64,000 nt of DNA from Pseudomonadota bacterium (GCA_027485595.1 JAIXQT010000075.1:44589-108588), one strand, 5' to 3'. Positions 21,296-62,169 are shown, counted from the first letter of the stretch. Notes: generated from the sequence alone by a model not told the origin. Translations and numbers: made by a program.

Positions 21296-23077
21296 TTGAC
21301 CGAAGCTGGTGGATTGAGTCTAACGGAAAGCATGACTCTCCCCGTCACATCCCGTCCTCGGATGATAGCTGTTTTGTGTGTAGCCCGTATCGCTGTACTA
21401 GCGACTCTCTCCCTTTTTATTTCGCAGGCTATTTTACATGGGCACGCGGAAACATTTGAGTACGCGGGGAGAGCATTCAAGGTCGATAGCCTGAGGGATA
21501 TTGATGGGGACAGTGTCGCGCTTGAGGTCAACGGGCAAGAGCTACTCACCTCAAAGTCAACTCTTGGACGCTCGCTCTTCGCGCTCTACGCCCAACAACC
21601 TGAGCTGTTGGAGAAGCAGGGCGTTTTCAGTGGATACGGTTCGTGGGTCGCGACACTCCCATCACGTGGAGACGAGGCGGGAGCTGTTACCGCTGTGGAG
21701 CGGGTCCTTGGCTCTCCTCAGATTGATGTGGTCGGAAAACTGGGTTTTTACGCGGAAGTTGTTTCAACGAAGGATGGCGAGCGTGTGCTAAGCACGGCGG
21801 TTTCTTCGTTGGGTGGAGGCGACGTTGGTGTCTGTGGAGCGTTGGGTTTTCTGAGTTCAGAGAGTCAGCTCTTGCTCAAAGATGCGCAATCTATCGACCG
21901 GGAATGGATAACGATGACCTGCCCACGGTCGCTTGTCGAGCTCGCTCGTCAATTGATGGTAGGGGGAAAAACCGGGTGGGGTATCGATATGTTACGCGCC
22001 GCCGCCATGTTTTCACGTTCCAGCGAGATCGGAGAGGCCGCGAGCACTTCCCTGCAGAGAATCGAGATGCTCGACAAAGCCAGGAATTCTCAGGATCCGG
22101 CGCAGCTAACCTCAGCGCTTGAGGTCGCAAGTTTTGATGCCCTGTTGCGTGAGTACTTTGAGAAAATTCGCCCGGAGGTACTCGATGATTTTAGCGCGCG
22201 GGCCCTTCGGGATGGTAAGCCGATGACCGCTTTGCGGGCGTTGTCGCTCCTTGATTTCTCACTCCGGAATGATGCCCAGCACGAATTGGTGTCTCAGGCT
22301 CTTCATCAGTTGCATTTCGAGGATCGTGAGATCGTGCGTGACCCTGGTGTTCGCGCGTTAGTATGGTCGTACGCCACGAGGGATGACGACATACGGCAGC
22401 GATATATGGCTACCCTTGAGAATTGGATTAACCGTTGCCTTGATGAGGACAATCCTGGGCAGGCGTTGAGTTTGCTCCAGAACCTAACGGAATTAAGACT
22501 CGATCCTTCCCCGGCGAACGACACGCTGCGAGGTGCTATCGCTGAGCATTTTGTGGATAACGGGGACGATGAGGCCGCGAATAGGGTGTTGAGGGATATT
22601 CGAACGGAGTTGCCGTGGGTATATCGATTCCGGCTCCTGCTCAAGCGCGACATGTATGTGTTGATCATGGTGTCGCTTGGTTATGTCGTTGTTGTGCGAT
22701 GGGCTTTCATGCTTATCAATCTGATAAGGCGGAGGAACACCGCGAGAAGGATAGCTCAAGAGGCTGAAAGGAGAGCCGCTGAAATCGCTCAGCGCGAGTG
22801 GTATCACGCTCAATTCGCTGACGACGCCCTCAGAGCTGAGGGGTTTTTGGATATCGACGAATACGCGGCCGGGCTCAAAAAATTCAATCTTTCTCCCGGG
22901 GCGTCATTGAAAGAGATTAAGAACGCGTTTCGGCACGTGGTCAAAACTCTTCATCCGGATCTTAATCCACGGGCGAGTGAGGACGACACTCGGGTGTTTA
23001 TTGATCTTACCAGGACGTACGAGCGACTCCTTGTACTACACGCAGAGCGGGAGCGGCGGGCGACATCGTCGAAGTGA
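21296..23077 (+). CDS. Membrane protein with C-terminal J (DnaJ) domain
   Basis: TM helices near the N-terminus and at ~aa 445-470. The C-terminal J-domain carries an HPD motif (LKEIKNAFRHVVKTLHPDLNP...YERLL). Confidence 0.55.
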   Translation: MTEAGGLSLTESMTLPVTSRPRMIAVLCVARIAVLATLSLFISQAILHGHAETFEYAGRAFKVDSLRDIDGDSVALEVNGQELLTSKSTLGRSLFALYAQQPELLEKQGVFSGYGSWVATLPSRGDEAGAVTAVERVLGSPQIDVVGKLGFYAEVVSTKDGERVLSTAVSSLGGGDVGVCGALGFLSSESQLLLKDAQSIDREWITMTCPRSLVELARQLMVGGKTGWGIDMLRAAAMFSRSSEIGEAASTSLQRIEMLDKARNSQDPAQLTSALEVASFDALLREYFEKIRPEVLDDFSARALRDGKPMTALRALSLLDFSLRNDAQHELVSQALHQLHFEDREIVRDPGVRALVWSYATRDDDIRQRYMATLENWINRCLDEDNPGQALSLLQNLTELRLDPSPANDTLRGAIAEHFVDNGDDEAANRVLRDIRTELPWVYRFRLLLKRDMYVLIMVSLGYVVVVRWAFMLINLIRRRNTARRIAQEAERRAAEIAQREWYHAQFADDALRAEGFLDIDEYAAGLKKFNLSPGASLKEIKNAFRHVVKTLHPDLNPRASEDDTRVFIDLTRTYERLLVLHAERERRATSSK

Positions 23078-23675
23078 TGTGGCCTCTTGGTTGGAGCGAT
23101 TGGTTTCGAGGGCGTTGCGCGCGCATGGTCGGTCGGGAACGCATCGCGCGTCGCAAAGGGGGGCGTCTATCCGTATGGTTGCGTGTTGTTGAGAGCTCTT
23201 TAGTAACGGCCCTAGCATACATGTTCCGCGTAACGACTCGCGATCCGATCAGAGTCCGTTCCTCTGGTGAGAGGTCTCGGTAGAGCGCGCCAGCTTTGAG
23301 CCGGTGAGCGAGTTTTAAATCGTGGTCTACGCGTCGCCAAAAGAGTCTCATGAGTGCGACGTGCAGCGGGGAGGCGGGCTCGAGGTATTCGTTCAGTACA
23401 ACGATGGCCCACCATGGATTGCCATGACAGAGTTGGTGAGAGATGGATTTAAGAATGGGTTGGGTGAGTTTCATATCCCCCCATGAGCAGGCTCTGTGCC
23501 AGCAAGAAGGATCTCTAAGTGCATGTAAATAAAGGGCATTGTTGCCGCTTGCTGAGGCGGTTTGCATCATCCCCTGGGGTGACATACTACAGAGCCTGCC
23601 GTTCGCTGTACGGTCATAGAGCTGCTCGTTTATTGATAATTCGGGGCCAGTTTCGATGACAGACGCCGTCATCAT
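23007..23675 (-). CDS. Hypothetical protein (Trp/Cys-containing core; basic C-terminal tail may be out-of-frame read-through)
   Basis: The ORF is long and has a plausible hydrophobic core (CWHRACSWGDMKLTQPILKSISHQLCHGNPWWAIVVLNEY). No motif recognised. It overlaps the 3' end of the J-domain gene. Confidence 0.3.
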   Translation of the reverse strand: MMTASVIETGPELSINEQLYDRTANGRLCSMSPQGMMQTASASGNNALYLHALRDPSCWHRACSWGDMKLTQPILKSISHQLCHGNPWWAIVVLNEYLEPASPLHVALMRLFWRRVDHDLKLAHRLKAGALYRDLSPEERTLIGSRVVTRNMYARAVTKELSTTRNHTDRRPPLRRAMRSRPTMRAQRPRNQSLQPRGHITSTMSPAAPALRVVQGVARTSW

Positions 23676-23903
23676 GCGTATACTTCTGAGCGACGATCGG
23701 AGCACGCGAGAGAGTGTACGAACCCGGCCAGGATCGGAAGATAGCAACCGCACTACATGTATCTGTGATGTGTTTCCGGTCGTCGTTTGTACGAGGCGTT
23801 CCAAAATAATCCCATCCTCATAGCTCGTTGCGCAAAGTTCTTGATGCGAATTCGTACAAGACTGAGTATCGTGTAGAAGCTTGTTTGTTTTTGGAAAACG
23901 AGA

Positions 23904-39783: not shown

Positions 39784-42138
39784 ATGCGACAACGTTACTC
39801 ATCCGAAGTAGGAAGTTACGTTCTTGAGCTCGCTGGCGTTATTATGGGCGTCGCGGTGTTCATCGTCGGCGCCGCCGATATATCCCGCATCTTTCAGGCG
39901 CGAAGTGCGGTGCGGGCCGCGGTGAACGATGGGGCTCGGTGTCTCTTTCCAACCGACGCGGCGTGTGTCGAGCGCGGTGAGGGGGAACTTTCCGCTCCGA
40001 ATCGCACGTATGACGTGTGGGTGTGGGGCTCGGGATACGAGGTTCCTCAGGAGTCGTTCGTTGTGTCCGCTCGGTGGCAACAAGAGCCTGTCTATGAGGT
40101 AGCGGTCCTCCAAGACGAGATTACTGATGTGACAGTTCAGCAGCGCCAATTTCAGTATCGCCCGTACTCGATGGTGTATCCCACCGTCGCTCATACGACA
40201 TATCTGATGCAAACTCGATTTCTCCCCGTCATAGTTGGAGGCCGTCCCCTTGAACCACAATTCGCGGACCCTCTTACCACGAGGGTGTCACGTCCAACCG
40301 CGACCTACAGCATGGAACGAGTGAGTGGCTCCACGACCAGACGGGTAACGACCGCGCTCAAAACGCCCTACCATGACACCTTTAAAATTGGCTCCATCTC
40401 CTTTCCGGTGAGTGACGCGTGGCCAACGATGCGGGAGGACAAAGCTCGTATCGCTGAGATGCCTTCGAGTATCGCGAGTTCCTTACCCTGTTTATTTGGC
40501 GCCCGGCAGCCCGCGCCCTCTGGCGAGGTGCTCACATGGAGCGCGGGGACGCCGCAAGAGTGTCGCTATCGTGTCCGTTCATCTCGCTCCTCGCGGGTCA
40601 TGGAGCGTGGAAATCTCAAAGTTCCGATGATGTTTCGGATTGAGGGAGATTCGCGAGGCACTGTAGATGGAGCAGAGGGAAAGGTGATGGTAGCGCTGTC
40701 ATGGCAGAGCCCCTCGGCGGGCGCAGGCCAGGTGGAGCTTGGGGGGCGAAGACTTGGATATTTGGGCGGAGGCAACTTCGTGCCACGGGGACTCGCCGAG
40801 GTCGATATCAACGCCGCATTGCGTCCCAATTACAACGACTACTCGGAGGAGTTGAGACTCTACTCTGAGCTGCCGCTCCTACCGGTAGACGCTACGGCCA
40901 CGCTCGATTTTTACCTGGTCAGTTTCAACGAACGTCGGGTGGCATGGAACGGCGGTAAACTTGAGGTATGGCTTCCTCAATATCGCTTGGTTCACGAGAG
41001 TCACGACTGTGGGTACACCGCCAATCCAACGGAATGCCCTACGCCGCCAGCGCAGGCGCCAGTTCATTACATAACGTTGAGTGAGAGATCGCCGTTCTCA
41101 GCTGTGGTGGCGGGGCGAGAGAGCTGTTCGCTCGCCGAAGACGCCAACGCCGAGAGCGATCTCCCTGGCTTCATTGCGCGATTGCGTGAGGAGGCGCTGA
41201 GCACTGGTAGCGCGCGACCACGCTCATTTCACCTTAAGGTGCCGACAGCGCATGCAGTATGCCCGCCGATTGTCGCGACGAGAGCGTGCGCCGCGCCTCT
41301 ACCGGAATACTTTGAGGGATGCGGGGAGACGCTCTCCCGTGACGATATCGCCTCTCGGTGTGGTGTGCCGAGCGAGTCGAGTGAGGTCCTTGACTACACA
41401 AAGCGTCCGACCGCGAGGTCGGTCAAACGATTCAAGGGATGTTCCGATGAAACCTTACCACAGTGCGCCTTGAACCAAGCTCAAAAAGTCGAATCCGTGC
41501 TCTACGTGGGTGAGAGGAGGTGTGACGCGGCGACGACCTCAGATGCTCCGCAGATGATTATTGGCCCCCTCGACGCGACAACATGTCAGGAGCGGGAAGG
41601 GGAGGCGGCACGATTGTATCGATCGCGCGAGAAGATTCCACGTGATGTCCCGGTTTCTGTGATTCGGCTACCCTCGTCCTCTCGTTTTAGTTCGGCTCGT
41701 CCGCCAAACATCTGCGTGCCCTACCTTTCGGCTGAGGGCACCTCGCGCGAGATGCTGTGTGGGCGGGGTCTCAGCGAGGCCGCCGCCGAGCGGTGTTGCG
41801 CCGAGAGTGATGGGCGATGTCGCAAGCAGCTCGTTGTGGTTCCGAGTTATTCGTCTCGGGATGACGAATGGGTATCCGCTCTCTCTGCCGCCAAGCGGCG
41901 GGTTGTTCAAGCGGCGCAGGCGGGATATCCACCTGTTCGGTATCAAGAGATCTGCGGAGATTCCGAAGTCAATTGCTTGCAGGTTGGCGCTGACCTTGAT
42001 GCAGACACATCAAAAGCGATCGTTTCAGCCAAGGTCCATGTACCACTTATGCTGTTACGTTTTTTTCACAAGAGTTGGGTGACTGTGGAGTATTCCACGG
42101 AGCGGCTCTTGGAGCGCATAGCGCTCGAAAAGTCGTAA
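39784..42138 (+). CDS. Large Cys-rich hypothetical protein with TadE/TadG-like pseudopilin N-terminal segment
   Basis: The N-terminus SYVLELAGVIMGVAVFIVGAADISRIFQARSAVRAAVNDGARC has the TadE-like layout (a short polar lead, a TM helix, then an R/A-rich helix). The remaining ~730 aa has many Cys and no recognisable domain. Confidence 0.4.
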   Translation: MRQRYSSEVGSYVLELAGVIMGVAVFIVGAADISRIFQARSAVRAAVNDGARCLFPTDAACVERGEGELSAPNRTYDVWVWGSGYEVPQESFVVSARWQQEPVYEVAVLQDEITDVTVQQRQFQYRPYSMVYPTVAHTTYLMQTRFLPVIVGGRPLEPQFADPLTTRVSRPTATYSMERVSGSTTRRVTTALKTPYHDTFKIGSISFPVSDAWPTMREDKARIAEMPSSIASSLPCLFGARQPAPSGEVLTWSAGTPQECRYRVRSSRSSRVMERGNLKVPMMFRIEGDSRGTVDGAEGKVMVALSWQSPSAGAGQVELGGRRLGYLGGGNFVPRGLAEVDINAALRPNYNDYSEELRLYSELPLLPVDATATLDFYLVSFNERRVAWNGGKLEVWLPQYRLVHESHDCGYTANPTECPTPPAQAPVHYITLSERSPFSAVVAGRESCSLAEDANAESDLPGFIARLREEALSTGSARPRSFHLKVPTAHAVCPPIVATRACAAPLPEYFEGCGETLSRDDIASRCGVPSESSEVLDYTKRPTARSVKRFKGCSDETLPQCALNQAQKVESVLYVGERRCDAATTSDAPQMIIGPLDATTCQEREGEAARLYRSREKIPRDVPVSVIRLPSSSRFSSARPPNICVPYLSAEGTSREMLCGRGLSEAAAERCCAESDGRCRKQLVVVPSYSSRDDEWVSALSAAKRRVVQAAQAGYPPVRYQEICGDSEVNCLQVGADLDADTSKAIVSAKVHVPLMLLRFFHKSWVTVEYSTERLLERIALEKS

Positions 42139-42168
42139 CAGCCCTAGGTGCTTCACGCTCTGCGCTGC

Positions 42169-42747
42169 TTAAGAAACGCCGCAAACGTCCCGAATCTCCG
42201 CGATCTTACGATCGATGTCGGCGTTGTACTGTCCAGCGCTCACCCGAACATTCTCGGCGTAATTTCCCTTGAGCAGTCCAACTACGGCTGATACCGGGAA
42301 TACAGAAGAGACCCCAGCTACAAGCTGTTTCCCTACACCCGCCTTCTCACTTGTGAGGGTCGCGATATCCTGCTTCGCCGTCGCGCAATTAATCCCCTTC
42401 TTGAGCGCCGCGTCGCCACCCTTGGGGGCGTGACTTTCTCCTACCAGACCGGAGGCGTCGTGATAGAGCCGGTCGGCCGATTCACCCACGGGGTCCGTCA
42501 CTGGCGCGATCGCGTCGCCGACCGGTTGCAGGACATCTCCAACTTTATCAGTCACGGGAGCTACGTCGTGGCCGATGTGTCGACCTGCTTTTTCCACAGC
42601 ATCTTTTCCGGCGGTCGCCGCGTTTTGGATGTCATCGCCGATCTCTGAAAGGTCCTCACCGAATTGAGCGTGGGCCGTTCGGGAGACAACGCAGGTACCG
42701 AGCGTGAAGAGTGCTAGAACGGAATAACAAGCGATTTTTCTAAACAT
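42169..42747 (-). CDS. Secreted hypothetical protein with short (A/V)PVTD-containing repeats
   Basis: Signal peptide MFRKIACYSVLALFTLGTCVVSRTAHA, then repeats DVAPVTDKVGDVLQPVGDAIAPVTDPVGESA. The ATG at 42747 was verified by hand. Confidence 0.45.
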   Translation of the reverse strand: MFRKIACYSVLALFTLGTCVVSRTAHAQFGEDLSEIGDDIQNAATAGKDAVEKAGRHIGHDVAPVTDKVGDVLQPVGDAIAPVTDPVGESADRLYHDASGLVGESHAPKGGDAALKKGINCATAKQDIATLTSEKAGVGKQLVAGVSSVFPVSAVVGLLKGNYAENVRVSAGQYNADIDRKIAEIRDVCGVS

Positions 42748-42915
42748 TGTATCCTTGATGTGGCGATTTACCCGCCGTATGACTGAAAGGTGACACAGAA
42801 ACAGCGGACCGTCACCCAAAGATTTACGCCCACTATGTGCTGGTTTGTGGGGATCTCTTATGGACTGTGACTTTTTCGTTGCGGTGTGATGGTAGGGTGA
42901 CTGATACTTTGAATC

Positions 42916-43419
42916 ATGCGCAACCGCCAAACTTTCTTCGCTTCCCTTTGTGCTTCGCTTTGTATCGCGCTCGGTACGTTGAGCATGTCGATGTACCCCG
43001 CTTACGCAGACTTCGGCGCGGATTCCGGAAAGGCTGAGGTGCCCGTCGCAATGGCACAGGAGTACGGAGCTTTCGCGGATAAGGCGGTGGAGGCCCTTGT
43101 GAAGGGCGACGGTAAGGCTTTTCGCGCGATGTTGAGTCCTGGCACGGAGAAGATGGAACAGCGAGGAAAGGGGGCCATCGACATGATCATCTACGAACGG
43201 TTCATTCCGTTTTTCGATGGTTTTGTTAAGCCACATCTCGTCGATCAACCATTTCCGACCTACCGCCGGATAGATGGCGTGAAGGGAGTGGGCTTCGCGC
43301 GCTCCTTCTTCCTATCGGATGGCAGCGAGCGATTCTACGTCATCTTCATTCTCAAAGAGGATGACCGACTCACGGTTGGCAATCTCTTACTCGACAAGAA
43401 GCTCGACGACGTTCGTTAA
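42916..43419 (+). CDS. Secreted hypothetical protein
   Basis: Signal peptide (FFASLCASLCIALGTLSMSMYPAYA). It is transcribed divergently from the previous secreted protein. Confidence 0.45.
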   Translation: MRNRQTFFASLCASLCIALGTLSMSMYPAYADFGADSGKAEVPVAMAQEYGAFADKAVEALVKGDGKAFRAMLSPGTEKMEQRGKGAIDMIIYERFIPFFDGFVKPHLVDQPFPTYRRIDGVKGVGFARSFFLSDGSERFYVIFILKEDDRLTVGNLLLDKKLDDVR

Positions 43420-48184: not shown

Positions 48185-49738
48185 TTACCCGATTGCCTGA
48201 GCTGACTGGCCAGATTGCTTGGCCAAATCCACCACCTCCTTGAGCATCTCAAGCTTGGTGATGATCCGAGGTACCTTGTTCTGTCCCCCTAATTTGCCCC
48301 GTCGACGCATCCATTCGGCGAAGAAGCCGGGGGCTACGGGAAGGATCTCGGGAGCCTTGAGTCCGAAGCCCTCTGAGCGATGAGCCTCATAGTCCTCGTT
48401 TCGTTTGCAGAGCCGCGCGTCGAGTGTCTGTTGGAAGCGCGCTAACGTTTCGCCTGAAGGAAGCGAGTTCGCGAACTCGACAACGTAAATGTGTCCACCA
48501 AGCTCGCCTGAGCGTTCCGGAAATACCGGTCCAACAGTAAAGTCAGATACCTCGGTACCTGTTTCATGCGCGGCGGTCGCGATTCCATCCTCTATCTCCT
48601 CAGCGATGAGATGCTCTCCGAACGCGGAGAGGTAGTACGAGGTACGACCGGTCACGAGAACGCGCGGTGTCTTCGTATCGACGAAGCGAACGGTGTCGCC
48701 GATCACATACGACCAGAGTCCGGCGCACGTCGTAAGGATGATCGCGTAGTTCACATCCTGCTGAACGTTGCCGATCCAGTGACGAGTTGGTTGCGCGCTC
48801 TCAAGCTCCTCAAGGGGAACGAACTCAAAGAAGATCCCGTGATCGAGGTTCATGCGGAGTCCATCGCCGTACCCACGATCCCCGACCGCGATGAAGCCTT
48901 CGCTCGCGGGATACACCTCGCGAAGCTCTGCGTGGCTGTGAGCGAGAAGCTCTCGGAATCGATCAACATACGGAGCGAAATTGACGCCACCGTGCACTAC
49001 CATTTCGAGGTTCTCGTAGATGCGACCGATCTTGCCCTGCGCCTCTGGTCGAAGCGAATTAAGCTTGTCGAAGAAGATCAGCATCCACGCTGGAACGCCC
49101 GAGATCATACGAATATCCTCGGAGAGTGAGAGGCTCGCTAAGGTGTCGATCTTCTCCTCCCAGTTCTTGAGGAGCGCTAGATCCGCCGGTGGGAAATATC
49201 GCATCTTCGCCCACCACGGCAGCTCTTTGACCGAGATGCCACTCAGGTCGCCGAAGTAGATTCCAGGAGCTGCGTTTGTGAGGTCCGTGCTGCCGCCGAG
49301 CATGAAGCTCTTACCACCCATCAAACGAGAGTGCGGACGATTCGTGACATGATGAATGAGAAGATCTGTTCCCGCCTTCGTGTTCGACTTCAACATCTCA
49401 CGGGAGTAGGGGATGTACTTCGTTGTGCCCGAAGAGGTACCGGAGCTCACCGGGAAGTAGGGGATCGTTCCGGGCCATGTGCAGTCGGTAAGAACTGGGA
49501 AGCTCTCCTGCCAAAAGTCTCGCCAGAAGTCCTCATACTTTCGAAGTGGAACCTGTCGCTGATAGTCCTCGATTGAGTTGATAGAGGAGAATCCATGCAT
49601 CTTTCCGAACTTCGTCGACGCCGCGTGGCGAACGAGCCCTAAAAGTTGCTTCCTTTGAGTTTCAGTGGGGTTAAGGGTGTTGAGTTGTTGGTTACGCCAA
49701 CGGGCGTACAGCCGTAGGAAAGGGGTTGCGTCAAACAT
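48185..49738 (-). CDS. GH3-family acyl-acid amido synthetase (adenylate-forming enzyme superfamily)
   Basis: GH3 signatures: the SSGTSSGTTKYIPYS AMP-binding motif, the YASSE-like YPASEGF, and overall length and order. Confidence 0.7.
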   Translation of the reverse strand: MFDATPFLRLYARWRNQQLNTLNPTETQRKQLLGLVRHAASTKFGKMHGFSSINSIEDYQRQVPLRKYEDFWRDFWQESFPVLTDCTWPGTIPYFPVSSGTSSGTTKYIPYSREMLKSNTKAGTDLLIHHVTNRPHSRLMGGKSFMLGGSTDLTNAAPGIYFGDLSGISVKELPWWAKMRYFPPADLALLKNWEEKIDTLASLSLSEDIRMISGVPAWMLIFFDKLNSLRPEAQGKIGRIYENLEMVVHGGVNFAPYVDRFRELLAHSHAELREVYPASEGFIAVGDRGYGDGLRMNLDHGIFFEFVPLEELESAQPTRHWIGNVQQDVNYAIILTTCAGLWSYVIGDTVRFVDTKTPRVLVTGRTSYYLSAFGEHLIAEEIEDGIATAAHETGTEVSDFTVGPVFPERSGELGGHIYVVEFANSLPSGETLARFQQTLDARLCKRNEDYEAHRSEGFGLKAPEILPVAPGFFAEWMRRRGKLGGQNKVPRIITKLEMLKEVVDLAKQSGQSAQAIG

Positions 49739-50453: not shown

Positions 50454-51035
50454 CTATCTGAAGAACAACGGTCGCCCTTCCTTCGAAACAGAATACGTAT
50501 CCAAGATCGTCTTGATCCCTTGACAGCATCGAGCGCGAAGCTGTCCGTCGCTGAGTGCTTGAGCGTCGATCTTCGTAGGATCTCTTCGAATCTCTCCCCT
50601 AAGGCTCTCGCGCAACGGCTCGAGTGCAGCCATCTTCTGAATGACCTCAAGCGTTGCTCCTGCTACGATCTCTTTCTTTGCCTTGTCGTTGAAGGCCGTA
50701 TGGTGCTTCTTCATCGCATCCACAAGGATCGGTGGAAGCTCAACCTTGAAAAGGTGGTTGAGCTGTTGCTCAATCGGCGCACTCGCAGGCAACGCAGCCG
50801 GCGCAGCCGCTGGCTTAGCCGGCACAGGCTGTGTAGGGCGTGCGGGAGTCGCTTGTCGTTGCGGAGACGCCGGTGGAAGCGCCTTACCCGCCCCACTGTC
50901 AATGTGCTTCCCTCTAAAATCGGGAAGGCTCGCTTTATCAAGCGCCGGAGCTGCCGTAGTAGTGGTGCTCTTATCTGGAGCCCGATTTTGGGGCGTAGCC
51001 TTCTTCGCTAGCCGGGCTGATCCTGGTTGGCACAT
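50454..51035 (-). CDS. Hypothetical protein with Pro/Ala-rich N-terminal half and helical C-terminal half
   Basis: It begins 36 nt downstream of the 1404-aa gene on the same strand. The overlapping plus-strand ORF is Arg-rich low-complexity and was rejected. Confidence 0.4.
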   Translation of the reverse strand: MCQPGSARLAKKATPQNRAPDKSTTTTAAPALDKASLPDFRGKHIDSGAGKALPPASPQRQATPARPTQPVPAKPAAAPAALPASAPIEQQLNHLFKVELPPILVDAMKKHHTAFNDKAKKEIVAGATLEVIQKMAALEPLRESLRGEIRRDPTKIDAQALSDGQLRARCCQGIKTILDTYSVSKEGRPLFFR

Positions 51036-51071: not shown

Positions 51072-54000
51072 CTATTCAAAAAAGAGAGCCTTTCGCGCCG
51101 CCACAAAAGCGGGGTCGCTCAGTAGTTGATCGCGGATGATTCTAACCTTCTCCCCGTACAGATCAACTAATGTTCTCATCTCAAGGATGATATTCGGCGC
51201 TCCACTCGCTTGGTCCTCCTCAAAGGTTACAAGGGCCTTTTTCCAGGCGTTTAGACACGGCATAACGCCGCGATGGAAGTGATCCGACGTTGTGTCACGC
51301 CCCTCATCGCGCCCCCGCACCCAGCTTGCCGCCAGAATGTCCTCTATGCCATGCCGCTTAAGGAGCTCCCGCAGATCGGCTTGAAAGGGGATCGAGAGCT
51401 CCGCGAGTGGACCACCGTACTCACCATTCGACAGGATCGAACCGATCAGTTGAAACGTTGGAGCTCGGCTAATATCGATCAACCCAAGCATATCGGTGCG
51501 TCCGTCGAAGGTGAAGAAGTCTCCGCCCCCAGAACGCCGATGACCGCCCTCGCCGGGAAAGCTCGCCAAGGGCCCTGCTGCGTCGTAAATCACCATCCGC
51601 TTGCCGGTCTCGTGGTTGTAATTGCCAGCGGAGAACATCTCGAGCGAGTACTCGGGATTATCCACCGCGCTCAACAATATCGTCGCGCCGAGCGCGGCGC
51701 ACTGTGCTGGACGCAAACGTCCGCGAATACAGAATTGGTACTCCGGGAACTCGGGCTTGATAATCTTAAACTCCACAAGGAGCCGCGCTACCTCAACCAA
51801 CTCACGAGCGCTCGTCATAGCTGGGAGTACGATGCAGTCATCGGCGTTATCCACCTTAAAGCCGCCCGTGAACGAGAAGGGGGCTACAAGTTGGAGCGCC
51901 TCAAGTTTCCTCCTATCGACCTTAGAGTGAAGGTGTAGCTTGCACCCAATCGGAAGCAGAGCCGCCGCGTCACGACGGAGTTCCCTCACGATCCCACGGA
52001 ATTCGTCGAGCTTTGGATCGCTCGCAAGAACGCTCAAGCCCTCCTTGTGTACCTGCGGCCACTCCTCAAGCTGTGCGACCTCGCCGTCCCGCGCACCCTG
52101 TTCAGCGATCATCCGCTGCATCAAGAAGCTCCCTACAAGGGCGTGATTAGCAATAGCGAGCGAGTCATTCGAGCGACTTAATCCACGATTAATAGTGTTC
52201 ACGGCGGCGTTAATCTCTTCCGCGCACTGCTTGAGAAACACCAGATGCATCCATCCCGGAAAAACCTCAGCGAGCACCTTTCTTTGCGGGAGCAGTAACG
52301 GCTCCTCCCATCCGGCAATTTCACGCCCCCAGTTCTCCGGATGGGCGCTCTGAGCCTGATCCCGAAGTCGTTCAATCGATTGCACACTACCCCGTATAGC
52401 GTGAGTAACCCCCTCGAGAGCACCCCAGCTTAAGAGGCTTGCGGAGAGCTTCGATGAAACCTTGGCAGGGTCGAAGCACCGCGCGAATTCAAGCACCTTT
52501 CCATCAAGATGCTTCTGTACCGTTTCGGCATTTGGTGAGCGCGGTTGATCATCGCAGAGATCTCTCGATTCATACGACTGCTCCTCGAATGCCATAAGCT
52601 CACTATCGTGCTCCGGTGCCACGGTGAGCTGCTCTATGAGGGTGTCGAGACAGTGGCGGTGCTCACGCGCGTCGAGCACCCCTGCGGCGACCAGGAGATT
52701 GAGGTTGTAGATCGTTGGCGCAATGGCGCAGAACTTCTCACGGCGATATGCTTGCTGAGTTCCCTGTAGCTCCCCAGCAGCTCTTCGAACGTTCTCTATG
52801 ACACCTTCGTGGTCGATCTCTGGAGGAGAGATAAGCATCGATTCAAAAGGCGGTAGCGGACGGTCATGGGATGAAAACTCGTCATCACAATCGCGCTCTA
52901 CATTCGCGAGTCTCTCCCTCTCAATGGTGAGTTGTTGTGCTGCCCATGGCTCCGGAGCGAAATCAGCCTCTAGTAAGAAGTAACGGTCGCGGGGGAGTGC
53001 TCTTCGCTCCCACTTCTCGACCTCCTGCGCGATCGAGTGGTGACGATTAAGGAGTCTGTACGCTCGGGCAGCCACCTTCTCCGCTGGTTGGCGCATCCCA
53101 ATATAGCTCTCCGCGACCTCGATCCTCGTAAGCCGCTCCGCCGAAAGTGGGGCGGTAATCCAGCCGAAGAGACGAGAGACGGCTTTGGGACTCACGAGAC
53201 CGATAAGCTGCGCGTCAAGCACCGCTGAGAGCGCGGCGAACTTCTGCACCAAGAGATCTCTGTTGTTTTCCTCATGAAGATGGTGTTTCGAGCGAAAGCC
53301 TGGCCAGGAGATCACAACGTTAGGGTCACGAATCGCGTCGTACTGCTCAAGAAACCGCAAGAACCCACGGGGGGGACTGAGCGGCTCCGGCATCTTGGCC
53401 GCGAAGAAGGCGAGATACACTTGGGCGATAAATCGTTGTTTCCGTGGGGAGCCGAGCACCTCACTCGCAAGGCGTTGCTCGAACTCGTGCCACGCCACGG
53501 CAGGGGACTGGGGAGCAACGGAGGCGTTACACTCAAGGAGGAGCTCGCGCGGACCGAGAGGGATGTGCGTGCCGAGCAATCCAGCGGTGCGTCGCTCGCC
53601 TCGACCGGTGAGTGGCACGGGATTAAACGCGCGGTTCTCAAGGGGGAGGGCGAGGGGGCCCTCAAGTTGCAGGAGGTCAGACACCGTAGCGGACAGGTCA
53701 AACGACTGTCCCTTGCTGGCGCCGCTGAGTCCAAACACCTCCCGAAGGTTTGCGAGCCCCGGTTTAGCGAAGGAAGCCTCGCTTCCCTCAAGGATCGCGA
53801 TAATCTTTGAAGTCGGCTTCTCGCGCATCAAGCAATCTTCAAGGATTGAGAGGCCCCGCGCGGATCCGTTCGTACCGTACTGACCCATGAGATCGACCGC
53901 GTACTGCCCGATTGCGCGAGCACGCTCAGGATTCCCCGCGCCGTAGTAATTGATCACCAGAGAGCAGAACCGGATCGCCACCTCTTCGCCGACCTCCGCG

Positions 54001-55286
54001 AAGGACGCGAGCTCCTTCCCCTTTGCCGCGTAGAGGGTCGCTGTCTCCTCAAAAGAGGAACCCGCGATAGCGGCTATTTTATGGATCTCATCTCCAGAGA
54101 GCGATGGCGTCACGATCGCAAAGTCACGACGGAACCACCACGGGGCAGCGCCTTGGCAATAGATATCGGTAATAATCTGAGTGGCGCGGGCGAGCGCTGT
54201 TTCTGGCGCCTCAGCGTGAAGGTATTGGAAGAGGGCCGACGCGCGGTCGGGATTAAGACCGTTCTCAAGCGCTGACTCAAGTGCGCGGACAAATGTGGTA
54301 AAGTTCTCTGATTGAAGCTCCTCATGCGAAAGACGCTCTCGATTCTCCAGCGCAAAGAGGAACGCTTCTGGAAGAACCTTGTCGCCCGTCACCGCTGATA
54401 CGATCCGATACGTCGCATCACTCCATGCGTCACGTGCGAAGACCCGCTCACGATCGAGCTCCTCGTTCCTTACGTTCCCCATAACAGAGGCAAGTGGCAT
54501 AAAGGCGAGCTCAGGCGGTAACGAACGGTAATCGTGCCCAAGGCACGACACGCCATGCCCGTGCGTTATCTCAACACACGCCGCAGCCCATGCCAGTGGC
54601 GAGCGAAAAGCATCTTGCCCGAGATGTGGATGGACCGCCTGCGCGTAGAACTCAGGCTGAAAGTAGAACCACTGAAACAGAGCCTTCGTCGTGTACTGAT
54701 TGAGGAACGCGAGAACAGAGGCTCGCTCAACTCGCTTCGACACATCACCATCTTCTGAGAGGGCGAGGTCGGTCGCAGGAATGCCGCCGTTGGAGGGTGT
54801 GATCGTAATCGTATCGTCTGTAATCCGAACGGAACCCTCGCGACGGTCGCGCAACGCCTCGGTCAATCCCTTGAGGTGCTGTTTGAGCCACGATAAGCGG
54901 GGACCCTCTTGGTTGTGGTCACCGGACCTCTCATAGCGATCCTCTTCTAAAAACCGCCTGATGGCGAACTGTTCAACCGAAGGTGTGCGGCTAGAGTAGA
55001 AGAAGAGGCCCCACTTCGGACCGTACTGAAATAGATCGTGTCGCCCCTGGAGAGGACGGATGTAAATGTAGTGGGGGAGAGTTTCCGTCTCGCTCATATC
55101 GGCGAGACAGCGTGGACCTGGATTGTACGCGCCGCCTAGTGCTCGGATGGGAAAGTTAGAAACCTCTGCGAGTAACTCCCTAAAGTCCTCTAAGAACTCG
55201 CTCTCCCGCGAAGGGAGAGACAGGGATTCCTGCGGCGAACTCTTTAAGGCAACAACACTAGTACTCATCACGAGACACGGCCACAC
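51072..55286 (-). CDS. Very large (about 1400 aa) soluble hypothetical protein without recognisable domains
   Basis: A 4.2-kb uninterrupted ORF with genome-typical codon usage. There is no signal peptide or TM helix, and no Walker A or HExxH. The possible start is MSTSVV at 55268. Confidence 0.6.
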   Translation of the reverse strand: MWPCLVMSTSVVALKSSPQESLSLPSRESEFLEDFRELLAEVSNFPIRALGGAYNPGPRCLADMSETETLPHYIYIRPLQGRHDLFQYGPKWGLFFYSSRTPSVEQFAIRRFLEEDRYERSGDHNQEGPRLSWLKQHLKGLTEALRDRREGSVRITDDTITITPSNGGIPATDLALSEDGDVSKRVERASVLAFLNQYTTKALFQWFYFQPEFYAQAVHPHLGQDAFRSPLAWAAACVEITHGHGVSCLGHDYRSLPPELAFMPLASVMGNVRNEELDRERVFARDAWSDATYRIVSAVTGDKVLPEAFLFALENRERLSHEELQSENFTTFVRALESALENGLNPDRASALFQYLHAEAPETALARATQIITDIYCQGAAPWWFRRDFAIVTPSLSGDEIHKIAAIAGSSFEETATLYAAKGKELASFAEVGEEVAIRFCSLVINYYGAGNPERARAIGQYAVDLMGQYGTNGSARGLSILEDCLMREKPTSKIIAILEGSEASFAKPGLANLREVFGLSGASKGQSFDLSATVSDLLQLEGPLALPLENRAFNPVPLTGRGERRTAGLLGTHIPLGPRELLLECNASVAPQSPAVAWHEFEQRLASEVLGSPRKQRFIAQVYLAFFAAKMPEPLSPPRGFLRFLEQYDAIRDPNVVISWPGFRSKHHLHEENNRDLLVQKFAALSAVLDAQLIGLVSPKAVSRLFGWITAPLSAERLTRIEVAESYIGMRQPAEKVAARAYRLLNRHHSIAQEVEKWERRALPRDRYFLLEADFAPEPWAAQQLTIERERLANVERDCDDEFSSHDRPLPPFESMLISPPEIDHEGVIENVRRAAGELQGTQQAYRREKFCAIAPTIYNLNLLVAAGVLDAREHRHCLDTLIEQLTVAPEHDSELMAFEEQSYESRDLCDDQPRSPNAETVQKHLDGKVLEFARCFDPAKVSSKLSASLLSWGALEGVTHAIRGSVQSIERLRDQAQSAHPENWGREIAGWEEPLLLPQRKVLAEVFPGWMHLVFLKQCAEEINAAVNTINRGLSRSNDSLAIANHALVGSFLMQRMIAEQGARDGEVAQLEEWPQVHKEGLSVLASDPKLDEFRGIVRELRRDAAALLPIGCKLHLHSKVDRRKLEALQLVAPFSFTGGFKVDNADDCIVLPAMTSARELVEVARLLVEFKIIKPEFPEYQFCIRGRLRPAQCAALGATILLSAVDNPEYSLEMFSAGNYNHETGKRMVIYDAAGPLASFPGEGGHRRSGGGDFFTFDGRTDMLGLIDISRAPTFQLIGSILSNGEYGGPLAELSIPFQADLRELLKRHGIEDILAASWVRGRDEGRDTTSDHFHRGVMPCLNAWKKALVTFEEDQASGAPNIILEMRTLVDLYGEKVRIIRDQLLSDPAFVAARKALFFE

Positions 55287-55393
55287 AACGGTTTGGGCAA
55301 GAGCCGGAGTGTAGCTGGAGCGAAGGGGCTACTCAAACGATGCAAAGGTACTATGAAAGCCCTGGATCGTGAGGGGAGGGTGGGGTTGTTTGT

Positions 55394-56632
55394 TTGGGTA
55401 GGCAATGGTCTGGAATGTCAAAATACGCCACCCTACCCCTCAACACCCCCATAACCCTTCCCATGCACCCAGCCACCAAAACCATCGCTACGCCCTCTGT
55501 TCCTCCCTATCGGTCCGATCCCCTCGACTCCCTGGCAACGCAGTCTTCAGAGATCATGATCCTTCACAGTCAGCTGTTAATCGCCTCAACCTTGCGTGCG
55601 CAGGGGGTTTTCGGCGGCGCAAGCCCCTCAGAGGTCCGGGCCCACTTTGAGCGGATCCGCGACCAGCTATCGCCAAACGTGCCGAGCGATGATCTCAAGC
55701 GGTACAGCGATATCCGATCCCCTGGCAGTCAGATGATGCATCTCTTTCTTTCGCTCTGCGCGCAGGTCCCCCAGTATCTCTCGGATCGGGTTGGGGGCTC
55801 CTTGCCAGCGAGGGATGCTCTAGATTGTCTCCGTGACGAAGCCCGAACCCGGAAGTTCCTGGAAGCCATCCCTGAATCTCTCGCTCGCATTCGAAACACC
55901 AACCCATCAGGGCAGGTGCATGTCGTCGATGCTGGATGTGGACCGATACCGATCATGGCGATCGCGGCTGCCTGGAGTGATCCGGGGGTGTATGTAACCG
56001 CGCTTGAACTTAATCCGCTCTCTGCTGAGCTTGCGCAAGGGATCATTACCGCTCTTGATCTTCAGGATCGAATTACTATCACATGTGACGATGCGACGAC
56101 CTACGCACCCTCCCGGCCAATTGACCTCATCATCTCTGAAACGATTAGCGCCGGCCTACTCAATGAGCCAGTGGTTGCGGTCATGCAGAACCTCTCGAAG
56201 CACCTAACCGCGAGGGGGGAAACGCTACCAACAGGGATCGATGTGCACCTTGGCGTTTTTCCGATTCATCAGTTTGAATCCCCGCTCGGCCACCTCCCCT
56301 ACAATGGCTTAACCGCGCTCTTGGCGCCCACAGAGCTTGCGCGCATCCCGTGGAAAGCGACCTCCCCTTTGTCTAGGATCGCGGCTCGAATGGCTATTGC
56401 TCCCTGCCATGCTGACTCGGTCGCGTGCGCATGGTTAACAGTACGGCTAGGGGACGCGGCGCTTCGCATGAACGAATCCCTCATCACGACACCAACGCTC
56501 GTGAACTGCCTGACATCCGACAAAAAAATTGAACCACTTATCATCAATGCCCTGCCAGCGCCAACATCGATTGCAGTTTTTGGTGAGCCTGGCGGACCAT
56601 TTCTTATCGGGGTACTTCCTCGGAACGAGTGA
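55394..56632 (+). CDS. Class I SAM-dependent methyltransferase with PRMT-like (protein arginine methyltransferase) double-E loop
   Basis: Motif I VHVVDAGCGPIPI, an acidic post-I residue (TALELNP), then PIDLIISETISAGLLNEPV. This aligns to the PRMT1 VDIIISEWMGYCLFYESM segment with the two Glu residues spaced identically. It is divergent from the 1404-aa gene. Confidence 0.5.
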   Translation: MGRQWSGMSKYATLPLNTPITLPMHPATKTIATPSVPPYRSDPLDSLATQSSEIMILHSQLLIASTLRAQGVFGGASPSEVRAHFERIRDQLSPNVPSDDLKRYSDIRSPGSQMMHLFLSLCAQVPQYLSDRVGGSLPARDALDCLRDEARTRKFLEAIPESLARIRNTNPSGQVHVVDAGCGPIPIMAIAAAWSDPGVYVTALELNPLSAELAQGIITALDLQDRITITCDDATTYAPSRPIDLIISETISAGLLNEPVVAVMQNLSKHLTARGETLPTGIDVHLGVFPIHQFESPLGHLPYNGLTALLAPTELARIPWKATSPLSRIAARMAIAPCHADSVACAWLTVRLGDAALRMNESLITTPTLVNCLTSDKKIEPLIINALPAPTSIAVFGEPGGPFLIGVLPRNE

Positions 56633-57300: not shown

Positions 57301-57909
57301 TTATTTTGATTCCGCAGAAGCGCGCACAAACAACGCCCCATAGCGAGGAAAGCCGTAGTGGAGCCAGTGGAAGTTGTCGCGAACACGCCGACCATCAACA
57401 TCAAGCCCGCCTCGAACATCCCGCACGCACCGCTCTCGGTAGGTCTCTAGAGCGTTCTTTTCTGCGTCATTGATAGTGTCGTTGCCTTCTTTCGCTAAGA
57501 GGCCTTCAACATAGGCCCGGTTCTCTTCGCGGGTAGCAACTCGGTAACCTCCTAACCTTTCAGCATAGGATGTCTGATCCGCTCGTGATTTATTGAAAGA
57601 CCCTTCCGACAGGAGGGTATCTAATTGCTGACCCTTTACTGATATTTGACCCACTACAGCCTGATGATTGTCGATGGTCTTGATCTCGCTGACAGCTTGC
57701 GATTGTGCATCGGACTGGGCGGCTTCAGTGCTTGTGAGAGCTTGCAGAAATTTTACTCGCGCCTCAGGAGAAATCGCTTTGAGCGCCTCTGACGTCATGT
57801 CAGATACTAGATGGTCAAGCACTGCGGTCTTGCCTGCTTGTGGCAGGATACCAGCTGCACTCTTAGCTACCTCAACTGCTGCTTTCGTATCTATTGCTGG
57901 GCTAGTCAT
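57301..57909 (-). CDS. Hypothetical protein (202 aa), translationally coupled to an upstream 53-aa ORF
   Basis: The ORF has no motif. Its ATG overlaps the stop of the small upstream ORF (ATGA). Confidence 0.45.
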   Translation of the reverse strand: MTSPAIDTKAAVEVAKSAAGILPQAGKTAVLDHLVSDMTSEALKAISPEARVKFLQALTSTEAAQSDAQSQAVSEIKTIDNHQAVVGQISVKGQQLDTLLSEGSFNKSRADQTSYAERLGGYRVATREENRAYVEGLLAKEGNDTINDAEKNALETYRERCVRDVRGGLDVDGRRVRDNFHWLHYGFPRYGALFVRASAESK

Positions 57910-58665: not shown

Positions 58666-61600
58666 TTGCCATTTTTTGTATGCGACGCATCCCCTCCGTT
58701 TCGGCAATGCGGGGAAAGCATGGGGCACTTAATACAAATACGGAGCTTGAAGCCGATGGCGGCGCTGATCGTCATCGCCGTTGTGGTCGGACTTATTGCG
58801 CTGCCCAATCTACGGCAGCGGCCCCAACTTCCGATTGACGTACGCAAGGTGAGCTCTCTTGAGGAAATATCATTCAATCCAGAGGGAACGTGGAAGGTCA
58901 CTCTCAACGAGGGAGAGACGCTCAAAGAGTACGAGGTCTATGACGCATCAGGGCGAGTAAATCTCTCTCGAGCGAAGTCAATCCTTGCCTACTTTTGGGA
59001 TAGAGTGATTTTCAGTGAAACCTTAGATGTCGAGGGAGAGAATCTTGCGATATTTAGGGTCTCTACAACAGCAGACGGAGATCTCAAGAGCTCGCCCGTA
59101 TTCCGCCGAAGCTATAAACTCTTCGGTATCTCCTCAACCGGCAAGCTCGTCGGCTTTCGGGATGTACAGGGCTCTCTCCCCTCAGGGGCACCCGAATTGC
59201 TCTTCAACTTCGGGCCATTTCTCAAAGGGGGCGCCACCAACATCGGCAGTGGGTCTATCAGCATCCCCCTCGAGATTTCCCAGAAAGAGGATGCTCTCCG
59301 CGTACGAAGCATTGGTCAAACGACCGAGCCGCAAGCGTTTGTGGCCGCCACTGTCAAAACCCCCTCCGGCATCAAGGTCCGCGGGTACCTCATAAAACTA
59401 TCAGGAGCATCCCTGGCTCTTCCATCCCTCGATCAGGTTGTGGACAACGCGCAGAAGGGGGTCGTAGCAGAGACGATCACCGCACCAACTTACAAGAGCA
59501 AGGATGCTCAGGGCTCAAGAGACCTCGGCGGCTCACCAACCACGGGCTCGAACGGCCCCTCAAAGGACAAAGGAAAGGTCTCGATTGACTCAGTAAACGC
59601 TTCGGCTTCAGTCCGTACCCCGACAAGAACACCGACCGTGACGCCAACCCATACCCCGAGCCGAACTCCCACCAGAACACCGACGGCGACTCCGACAATG
59701 ACCCCTACTCGCACACCGACGGTAACACCGACCACCACTCCGAGCCGCACGCCGACGAGGATTCCAACGGCCACTCCGAGCCGCACGCCCACACGTACCC
59801 CAACGGCACCTCCAACAAGAACACCTACTCAAACACCAACCGCGACGCCTACAGCGACCCCCACGCGGACTCCAACTGCCACACCCACGAAAAAATGTGG
59901 TGATGGAGTTAAAAATATTGGAGAGGAGTGTGACAGTGGTAATAAGAATTCAAATTTAAGCGATCAATGTAGAACTGATTGTAGGATGCCAAAGTGTGGG
60001 GATGGGATAAAAGATAGCAATGAAACTTGTGACATTAATGATTTTAAAGGATTGGTAAAACCGAAAAAAATGCCAGAGGATGTTTTCGCGCAAAAAGTTT
60101 GTCATTCATCATGCAATATTGTCACTTATCCAAATTATTGTGGTGATTGGATAACAAATATTGATTTAGGAGAAGAATGTGATCATGGCGAAAATAACTC
60201 TAATTTAGGTTATGAATGTAGAACTAATTGCACAGTGCCAAAATGTGGTGACGGAATAAAAGATTTAAATGAAGCCTGTGACATTGGCGTACTAAATAAA
60301 GATAGTTTTAGTGGCTGTGATACAAAATGCAGAACGACAATTTGTGGAGATGGAAACGTTACAGGTGCTGAAGAGTGTGACGACGCGAATACGAATGATA
60401 CAGACAATTGTACCAATGTATGCCGGCAATCAAGATGCGGTGATAATATAAAAAATGGACAAGAAATTTGTGACGCGAATGATTTTGCGGGAATAATAAA
60501 ACCAGAAAATATGCCCGAAGATGTTTTTGCAAAAAAAATCTGTGATTCATCATGTAATCTTTCTTATCCAGAACATTGTGGTGATGGAATAAAAAATGTT
60601 GATGAAGAATGTGATACTAATGATTTTAGAGAAGTAATTAAGTCTGAAGAAATGCCAGATATTATCTTCAGAAATAAAAAATGTGACTACAATACATGTA
60701 AGGTTATCTACGAACCATTATGTGCAAAAGGTCAAGTTTTGAATTGTATAGATGAGTGTCCTAGCGATTCTAACAAAGCCGACCCTGGAGTCTGTGGCTG
60801 CGGAGTAACAGATACCGATACCGATACCGATGGTGATGGAACAGTAGATTGTATTGATGAATGTCCTGAAGATAGTAATAAAAATAAAGTTGGAGGTGGA
60901 TGTGGGCTCGTTGATATCGACTCAGATAACGATGGTACTCCTGATTATAAAGATCAGTGTATAGAAGATGCTAATAAACATGACTCTGGACAGTGCGGTT
61001 GTGGTGTAGCGGATCTGGATTCAGACCGAGATGGCACTGCTGATTGTAAAGATGAATGTCCTGATAATGCTTCATTAACAGCAAAAGGAATATGTGGATG
61101 TTCAGGAGATGAGGATTCAGATGGAGATGGTACTCTTAATTGTGAAGATCAGTGTGTATCAGACAGCAAGAAAACATCACCAGGACATTGTGGATGTGGC
61201 AATGCAGATTACGTTGTAGATGACCAACCAAGTTGCTCTAAACATGTACTTGCACTAGAGCCAGCACCAACTGCCACACAAACACCGACACCTGAAACCT
61301 CTCAGGGAACTCAGCAAAAATGTTGTGTTTGTTTATATGAAGAAGAGTTTAAATCTGAGTGTGGAGTTTGGAGAAATAAAACTGGAGGTTGTACTAGTGG
61401 TGGTGATTATCCATTGAGTAGTAGCGAAATGAGTCCTCAAAGTGTTTGTGGAGATGTATCTAATGTAGAAGTTTATACTGCTGCTCATATGGATGAATCT
61501 GATGCAGCGTGTCTTTCAGACATTTCAGAAACTTTAGTTAGCTCATTACCAGCATTAACTTCTTGTCACATAATACTAGATGGATGCAATTCTTTTAATA

Positions 61601-61959
61601 ATATGAATCTAGCTAATGCAGAAGCTAGGAGAATTAGACAATACCTAAATAGTTGTGGACGTACGAATGTAGAGGTAACTATTGAGGGAAATGAAAATAT
61701 TACTTCAGATCTTACAGGGGCTCCTGGTAATACTCGTTGTTCTCCAAGAGGAATTAGAGTTTGTGCACGTACTATTACTGACGTATTACATAAATGTCAT
61801 CCTGCTGGAAGTGACTGTTGGACGGACCCGCAGAATCTAGATAGTAGAACGTGCACTGAGGCTGGAGTGACAAAAACTCAAGTTTGTGTAGCAAATGGTG
61901 GAAACGAAAATAATAATGGGGATGGGAGTGGAGCCGGAACTTGGCAATTTCGAAATTAA
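58666..61959 (+). CDS. Membrane-anchored large cysteine-rich repeat protein (N-terminal TM, unknown domain, Thr/Pro linker, Myxococcus-type Cys-rich repeats, thrombospondin-3-like repeats, novel Cys-rich C-terminal domain); probable start ATG 58720
   Basis: TM helix [17 protein letters not shown]; the TPTRTPT linker; repeated CGDG(I/V)K...EECD modules; TSP3-like [38 protein letters not shown]. From ~59890 onward the DNA is strongly AT-rich. Confidence 0.65.
59617..59892. repeat. Thr/Pro-linker coding repeat ((T/R/S)PT)n inside the 58666..61959 gene
   Basis: It encodes [31 protein letters not shown]... The reverse strand yields a spurious GV-rich ORF. Confidence 0.6.
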
Positions 61960-62169
61960 AGTTTAGTTGATCTGCCCCCTCAGTTAGTACCAGCCCTGAT
62001 TAGGTTTCCCAGATATTTTTCCTGCCTAACATATTTATTCATGGCTGTCTTGCAGTCCCTCGGCGTGGTTGAGATTCCGAGTGAGCTATGTCACCGTCCA
62101 CTTTCCGGCGTCCTAGCGACCAAGCATGAGTCTCGTACCCTTGCGCTTCCACGATTAAGGAGGTGCAGG

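Follow-up and report, generated by a model that had tools for sequence, protein, structure and literature searches.

A large protein with a widespread C-terminal domain and a small, mostly Met-Cys-initiated protein are encoded by a conserved two-gene module in a Pseudomonadota bacterium

In pupylation, a ligase with the glutamine synthetase fold (PafA/Dop) acts with Pup, a small intrinsically disordered protein of ~64 amino acids (aa) that ends in GGQ or GGE, and in eukaryotes the substrates of the Cys/N-degron pathway that begin Met-Cys include the plant ERF-VII proteins (MCGGAI...) and animal RGS4/5. We know of no glutamine-synthetase-like ligase that pairs with a disordered partner initiated by Met-Cys (MC), and unannotated families are common in metagenomic data. 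Here we describe a gene for a large protein, together with the small gene that follows it on the same strand, in a stretch of 64,000 nucleotides from Pseudomonadota bacterium GCA_027485595.1 (JAIXQT010000075.1:44589-108588), referred to below as the window; positions are counted from its first letter. The large gene and the small gene, whose product we call the partner, form an operon and constitute a conserved two-gene module with these features:

51072..55268, minus strand: large-protein gene, 1,398 aa; stop codon 51072-51074; probable start at ATG 55268 rather than at the GTG 55286 that gives the longest open reading frame (ORF).
50454..51035, minus strand: partner gene, 193 aa, 36 nt downstream of the large gene, with an AGGAG ribosome-binding site.
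51009..51035, minus strand: partner codons 1-9 (MCQPGSARL), a clade variant of the family-wide N-terminal motif M-C-[EQDH]-x-[HG]-[RKA]-x-x-G.

The evidence for the module comes from the comparison of loci. A same-strand gene lies 3-76 nt downstream of the large gene in all 14 independent loci, with products of 160-613 aa that match no Pfam domain, except for one weak match to HTH_30. Thirteen of these 14 products begin Met-Cys with the pattern M-C-x-x-[H/G]-[R/K/A], the individual starts being MCQPGSA, MCQQGSA, MCQPGAT, MCHTHRHSG, MCDTHRHSG, MCEQSQRHSG, MCEHHKALG, MCDSHRRFG, MCLSHRSIG, MCEQHRPIG, MCQSHAHTS, MCQTGAGHS and MCEQHRAIG; at one locus (L007) the true MC start had been missed by the gene caller. 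When the window and the 16 fetched loci (17 sequences) are scanned on either strand, the motif occurs at partner starts alone, apart from one antisense chance match. The motif is followed by a Pro/Ala/Thr/Ser-rich stretch in which 66-87% of residues are small or polar, and the C-terminal ~80 residues are more hydrophobic, ending mostly in P-x-F-L-[R/K]. The partner encoded in the window has the N-terminal sequence MCQPGSA, a Pro/Ala-rich linker of low hydrophobicity, and a more hydrophobic C-terminal part that we infer to be helical and that ends RPLFFR. Position, architecture and the N-terminal peptide are what is conserved among the partners.

The partner also follows proteins that contain the C-terminal domain of the large protein (the C domain) and lack its conserved helical domain (N2, see below), at loci L011 and L021 (1,171 aa), and it is therefore to the C domain that the partner is tied. 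We also note that L011 (1164-8138) carries a duplicated variant of the module without N2, with two tandem genes (923 and 1,217 aa) whose products each end in a C domain, and that its MC-initiated partner of 160 aa is the one with the weak HTH_30 match and has a Lys-rich tail.

A preliminary description of this region, made from the sequence alone, had called the large protein an orphan, and this does not stand. A word-indexed homology search returns 2 clusters only and by itself gives a misleading picture of an orphan; it is corrected by an exhaustive HMMER search, for which a profile of residues 199-1386 was made from two sequences and run against 1.84 billion cluster representatives, and which yields 270 representatives at E<=1e-3, 163 at E<=1e-10 and 65 at E<=1e-30. 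Dozens of homologs equal to the large protein in length align with it colinearly and from end to end, and a metagenome locus scan provides 3 extra family loci. The sole name given to the family in any source is "hypothetical protein", and our literature searches turned up no account of either the family or the MC motif.

The same description was right that this is a large, uncharacterised protein of the cytoplasm that contains no recognisable domain and none of the common catalytic or nucleoside triphosphate (NTP)-binding motifs. The whole protein has no match in Pfam (E<=0.1), NCBIfam, PADLOC or PHROG, and none among PDB sequences (phmmer); a motif scan finds no Walker A/B, HExxH, Fic, kinase, nuclease, NTPase or protease motif. 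A possible HD-type site at the His-rich stretch H213..H245-D246 was rejected, as its residues are not conserved in the family. Sixteen homologs scanned singly give no above-threshold Pfam match and one sub-threshold match to DUF6247, and among 44 further C-domain homologs (alignment A11) no Pfam family is matched by more than one member. Nor is there any confident remote match over most of the length of the large protein, the weak hint of a known fold being confined to the last 313 residues. The large protein is not explained by any known family or system; it belongs to an undescribed family that is widespread and occurs in many uncultured bacteria.

Segment-wise phmmer searches on the best 150 of the 270 representatives divide the protein into four parts:

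54675..55268, minus strand: N1, residues 1-198; variable, matched only by P0002 and P0011; mixed alpha/beta with lower predicted local distance difference test (pLDDT) values.
53019..54674, minus strand: N2, residues 199 to ~750; conserved all-helical domain with a core at ~199-720 (~520 aa); pLDDT mostly >90.
52014..53018, minus strand: M, residues 751-1085; variable, matched by close relatives only; long helices of moderate pLDDT.
51075..52013, minus strand: C domain, residues 1086-1398; alpha/beta, ~310 aa; the most conserved and most widespread part.

N2 and the C domain occur together in 57 of these 150 representatives (median length 1,405 aa), and the C domain is found without N2 in 85, including stand-alone proteins of ~340 aa and classes of ~600 and ~1,150 aa; the eight that have N2 without the C domain are probably fragments. 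The C domain, which is 76-86% identical to that of the ortholog, forms the family's evolutionary core, and it occurs also alone or behind other N-termini. N2 is marked by the motifs PWWF (376-379) and KMPEPLSPPRGFLRFL (625-640). The second of these, which can be written KMP(E/D)P(L/F)xPPxGFLxFL (window 53349-53396), resembles the P-x-F-L-[R/K] ending of the partners, a likeness that may be coincidence or may reflect a shared docking or pseudo-substrate element.

Structural models were built for the two portions of the protein. That of residues 1-1085 (54 sequences; pLDDT 81, predicted template modelling score (pTM) 0.80) is almost wholly helical, has few invariant polar residues (W227, N265, E301, R449, R546 and Y618), and finds no fold match in the PDB with Foldseek (best E 0.32). 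In the C-domain model (84-sequence alignment; pLDDT 92.1, pTM 0.92), five beta-strands alternate with helices and a helical bundle comes after them. H1112, R1257 and D1259 are invariant across sequences that are 20-30% identical, and G1108, K1110, P1149, Q1178, D1229, T1258 and W1316 are conserved in at least 90%; in the model all of these lie on or beside the five strands, apart from W1316 in the helical part. A G-x-K-x-H motif sits on strand 1, the Gln on strand 3, the Asp after strand 4 and a G-R-T-D-x-x-G motif on strand 5.

Foldseek finds no PDB match to the C domain at E<=1e-3, and the top-ranking fold matches are to YbdK (1tt4 and 1r8g; E 4.7e-3, probability 0.77, TM-score 0.30), with a glutamine synthetase (8oon) at rank 7. 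Among viral models, 16 of the top 50 matches are named "amidoligase" (E from 4.1e-3, TM-score ~0.3). Two independent Foldseek libraries in this way converge weakly on the superfamily of glutamine-synthetase-like carboxylate-amine ligases. In a 24-sequence alignment of amidoligases the invariant residues are E36, D53, G54, S55, L56, R57, E61, H98, H100, E190, F191 and R192, which make up the motifs G-x-E-x-E on strand 1, D-G-S-L-R, E, (C/S)-x-H-x-H and E-F-R; in our reading of the sequences, two C-domain motifs lie on strands that look equivalent and are spaced just as their amidoligase counterparts, G-x-K-x-H as G-x-E-x-E and G-R-T-D-x-x-G as G-S-V-E-F-R-G. When alignment A6 served as a profile for searching PDB sequences, designed helical proteins were all that came back, an artefact of helical low-complexity columns, and the corresponding search with the C-focused A11 returned nothing relevant.

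The reading that we prefer, with a probability of about 0.35, is that the large protein is the large subunit of the two-gene module and that its C domain docks and modifies the N-terminal Cys peptide of the partner. The C domain would be a strongly diverged descendant of the glutamine-synthetase/YbdK/amidoligase fold, the strand-borne G-x-K-x-H, Q, D and G-R-T-D-x-x-G forming a ligand site and the canonical metal- and ATP-binding residues (G-x-E-x-E, H-x-H and E-F-R) having been replaced. It would dock the Cys-containing N-terminal peptide of the partner and modify or process it by non-canonical chemistry, with the helical 1,085 residues acting as a scaffold; the PRMT-like methyltransferase encoded beside the large gene (see below) would be an add-on of this lineage and may methylate one of the two proteins.

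Several observations weigh against this proposal. The fourteenth partner (L019) begins MG rather than MC (MGEHHRGL), distant partners are not alignable as homologs, and a stand-alone C-domain protein of ~340 aa (L010) is not accompanied by an MC partner. Every fold match of the C domain is insignificant when taken singly, with E >= 2.6e-3, TM-scores of ~0.3 and root-mean-square deviations of 10-25 A. Aligned with hhalign, the C-domain profile A11 gives probabilities of 0.07% with E. coli YbdK, 0.36% with the phage tf amidoligase and 0.06% with the 24-sequence amidoligase alignment, and PF12224, PF04107 and Gln-synt_C are unmatched by the 44 C-domain homologs even at E<=10. The C domain is not a member of the amidoligase family, and the fold-level resemblance is unproven. 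Finally, it is without the metal-binding acidic and His residues of the ligases and could be non-catalytic.

That last point leads to the main alternative, possible if somewhat doubtful, in which the two proteins form a non-catalytic complex, the C domain being a pseudo-enzyme or peptide-binding module and the rest a helical scaffold with a flexible, disordered tether protein. The absence of the canonical ligase catalytic residues agrees with this, as do the ~1,085 residues of helical scaffold with few invariant polar residues and a partner that is mostly low-complexity linker; the weak C-terminal helix-turn-helix match of the L011 partner would suggest a tethering or DNA-linked role. However, such a complex fits poorly with the invariance of H1112, R1257 and D1259 and the >90% conservation of K1110, Q1178, D1229 and T1258 at 20-30% identity, or with the way in which the conserved residues alternate along the strands so as to face one side of the sheet, as in an active site, and chemistry accounts more readily than binding for the conserved N-terminal Cys of the partner.

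The fold-level hints to YbdK, glutamine synthetase and amidoligases, with a gene for a small disordered protein with conserved termini alongside, could also be taken to indicate a canonical ATP-dependent carboxylate-amine ligase of the PafA-Pup kind, which would activate a carboxylate and ligate the partner or an amino acid onto targets. This we regard as very improbable, because none of G-x-E-x-E, H-x-H and E-F-R is present, profile comparisons show no similarity, Pfam gives no match to Pup_ligase or Amidoligase_2, the conserved end of the partner is its N-terminal MC and its C-terminus is P-x-F-L-R, not GGQ or GGE, and no proteasome genes are seen at any of the 14 loci.

Within the preferred reading, docking and modification of the partner by the C domain, a bolder version can be formulated, which we consider unlikely as it stands: a new and widespread bacterial protein-modification system in which a domain of glutamine-synthetase/amidoligase descent, its metal-binding Glu and His residues exchanged for the K-x-H / Q / D / R-T-D site, acts on the N-terminal Cys (C-x-x-H-R-x-x-G) of the dedicated, disordered partner once Met removal has exposed it. 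If true, it would represent a chemistry of N-terminal Cys (acylation, ligation, oxidation-linked tagging or thioester transfer) without a described bacterial counterpart, further coupled in this lineage to a rare bacterial PRMT-like methyltransferase.

The gene encoding the large protein is real and under purifying selection, since the ortholog is colinear, the ratio of non-synonymous to synonymous substitution rates (dN/dS) is 0.24, and the codon-position GC is like that of housekeeping genes. A single uninterrupted ORF occupies 51072..55286 on the minus strand and its translation runs through; the ortholog P0002 (1,401 aa, 57% identity) aligns over the full length with small indels only. The dN/dS value was obtained across 1,291 codons by comparison with a 96%-identical metagenome-assembled genome (MAG; L004), and the GC at the three codon positions (0.645/0.44/0.635) resembles that of the PriA, DnaX, H+-PPase and FumC genes of the window. 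An identical protein of 1,398 aa (P0001) has entries in NCBI, JGI/IMG, ENA and Logan. An artefactual or decaying ORF, whether through mis-assembly, a fused pseudogene or chance, could be invoked from the lack of database annotation and a GTG start that is probably not the real one, but we give this practically no weight, as it is already refuted by the homologs with their colinear orthologs, the dN/dS value, models with pLDDT of 81 and 92, and the occurrence of the identical protein in several sources. The window contains no internal repeats and no paralogs.

The description of this gene as a single soluble 4.2-kb ORF with good codon usage is confirmed by the ORF reading, the codon-position GC and hydropathy, and of the stated 1,404 aa it is the ORF that stands and the start that probably does not. 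There is no convincing transmembrane segment, the best 19-residue Kyte-Doolittle mean being 1.65 within a modelled helix, and no secretion signal or signal peptide is seen. The start is probably ATG 55268 rather than GTG 55286, giving 1,398 aa, because P0001 and P0002 begin there and a conserved promoter-like block lies upstream:

55308..55338, minus strand: putative promoter-like block (TTTGAG, 18 nt, TACACT), 40 nt upstream of ATG 55268.

The block is common to the window and the 57% ortholog locus, and the remaining spacer has diverged between them. It is absent from the listing of a generic promoter scan, and the promoter and terminator scans yield nothing in excess of shuffled sequences.

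On the other side of the spacer is a divergently read gene:

55415..56632, plus strand: PRMT-like S-adenosylmethionine (SAM) methyltransferase, 405 aa from ATG 55415, as in P0215 (longest ORF 412 aa).

The identification as PRMT-like in the preliminary description is supported, and the spacer of 108 bp given there becomes 146 bp when the likely starts, ATG 55415 and ATG 55268, are used. The best PDB sequence matches are to PRMT7, CARM1 and PRMT6 (E ~5e-6, residues 144-293). SAM motif I is present as VVDAGCGP (VVDAGCGPIP in the translation), together with a PRMT-type double-E loop, ISETISAGLLNEP (read in the translation as DLIISETISAGLLNEP); as regards the THW loop, the translation contains no T-H-W tripeptide. 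Pfam scores fall below the gathering cut-offs, at 18.5 vs 22.9 bits for PRMT5 (PF05185) and 20.4 vs 27 for Methyltransf_25, and there is a weak PADLOC match to mad2 over the SAM domain.

It had been asked earlier whether the large gene is always found next to this methyltransferase, and the answer is that it is not. The methyltransferase has relatives in 4 clusters only, and is present only in the window, the 96% strain and the 57% ortholog locus, being absent from the 11 more distant independent family loci; the window and the locus of the 57% ortholog have three genes in common, those for the methyltransferase, the large protein and the small protein, and no others. An obligate partnership is rejected by this synteny and by the tiny family. 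The methyltransferase is a lineage-specific accessory outside the family-wide module, and the informative neighbour is the 193-aa protein.

The surroundings of the module bear on a further explanation, that it serves anti-phage defence or is a toxin or secreted effector system, roles of the kind suggested in the preliminary description. The window is core chromosome, with genes for PriA, PilQ, DnaX, AccC, signal recognition particle (SRP) RNA, tRNA-Asn, FapA, H+-PPase, an ABC-F ATPase and FumC, and the other family loci are likewise flanked by housekeeping genes that are unlike between loci (ArgS, HisS, GyrB, DnaE/ImuB, KatG/Fur and MsrAB). In favour of defence or effector functions one can point to the size of the protein and its lack of annotation, to the break in synteny with the 96% strain 210 bp beyond the methyltransferase, to VirD4/TraG-like and transposase-like genes 5-7 kb from the ortholog at L001, and to the mad2 match of the methyltransferase. 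We nonetheless think such a role quite unlikely: PADLOC-DB v2 gives no significant match to the large protein (best PsyrA, E 0.045, 10.9 bits) and none to the partner, and PHROG gives no match to either; a scan of viral contigs and tblastn searches of phage genomes and plasmids, within their sensitivity, recovered no relatives; the flanks are housekeeping genes unrelated between loci, and the GC content equals that of the chromosome; and no nuclease, NTPase or protease motif, signal peptide or conserved secretion gene is seen.

Some features of the surrounding DNA are recorded here in their own right. Similarity between the window and the 96%-identical MAG JAIXPR01 (L005 1-8424) stops ~210 bp past the methyltransferase stop codon (window ~56845), and because it ends so abruptly the module lies at the edge of a strain-variable region. 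That region contains a 202-aa ORF (57301-57909, minus strand) with no Pfam match and a weak match to phrog_5869, of unknown function (E 1.2e-4). At L001 (15893-23777), adjoining the module of the 57% ortholog, are a metallophosphoesterase, a 331-aa ORF that is transposase-like by eye only (no Pfam match on record), a VirD4/TraG-like protein of 724 aa (weak TraG-D_C) and a 688-aa unknown protein; this neighbourhood, which is not seen at other loci, is possibly a mobile or conjugative remnant.

Downstream of the partner gene is a GH3-family protein gene (48185-49738, minus strand) whose NCBIfam match is to the equivalog OlsH (lyso-ornithine lipid synthetase), at 621.9 bits (cut-off 620); at other loci this gene does not accompany the module. 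The GC content of the window falls to 0.38 (~0.55 elsewhere) around 60001-62000, within a 1,097-aa ORF (58666-61959, plus strand) that has a long (T/S)PT(R/A)TPT repeat tract and, behind it, Cys/Asp/Asn-rich repeats of the DUF4215 and thrombospondin type-3 kinds, and the dip is probably compositional, from repeat and amino-acid bias. Two ORFs in 39784-43248, of 784 aa (plus strand) and 359 aa (minus strand), match neither Pfam nor NCBIfam. A bacterial small SRP RNA at 23692-23787 lies inside a mechanically called ORF (23007..23804, minus strand), which is probably spurious for that reason, and a 346-aa protein (20254-21294, plus strand) matches the NCBIfam OS_HP2 family (seleno)protein and choice-of-anchor D domains.

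The family is widespread and experimentally tractable now; the mechanism proposed for it is speculative. Four described systems offer points of comparison. The neighbouring methyltransferase resembles PRMTs (PRMT1/4/6/7; PF05185) in its SAM motif I, its double-E loop and its top PDB sequence matches, and differs from them in its sub-threshold Pfam scores, the lack of a recognisable THW loop and a family of 4 clusters, being tied to the closest clade only.

Structure searches with the C-domain model come back repeatedly to one superfamily only, the glutamine-synthetase-like ligases (PF12224, PF04107 and glutamine synthetase), with which the C domain shares the placement of conserved residues on consecutive beta-strands and two identical motif spacings. 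The C domain differs from these ligases in having no hidden Markov model or profile similarity to them, in the replacement of E-x-E, H-x-H and E-F-R, and in its location as the last part of a helical protein of 1,400 aa.

By analogy with PafA/Dop and Pup, the module may be seen as a glutamine-synthetase-fold-like domain encoded beside a small protein that is dedicated to it, mostly disordered and conserved at one terminus. The partner, however, is 160-613 aa in length as compared with ~64 aa for Pup, and its conserved end is an N-terminal M-C-x-x-H-R; the large protein has neither a Pup_ligase match nor the ligase catalytic residues, and proteasome genes are not found nearby. As for the Cys/N-degron substrates, a possible analogy lies in the Met-Cys start and the brief conserved peptide behind it, with which a regulatory or disordered protein begins. 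The partner differs from them in being bacterial and in its motif C-x-x-H-R-x-x-G, and we identified no homolog of cysteine dioxygenase or of arginyl-transferase.

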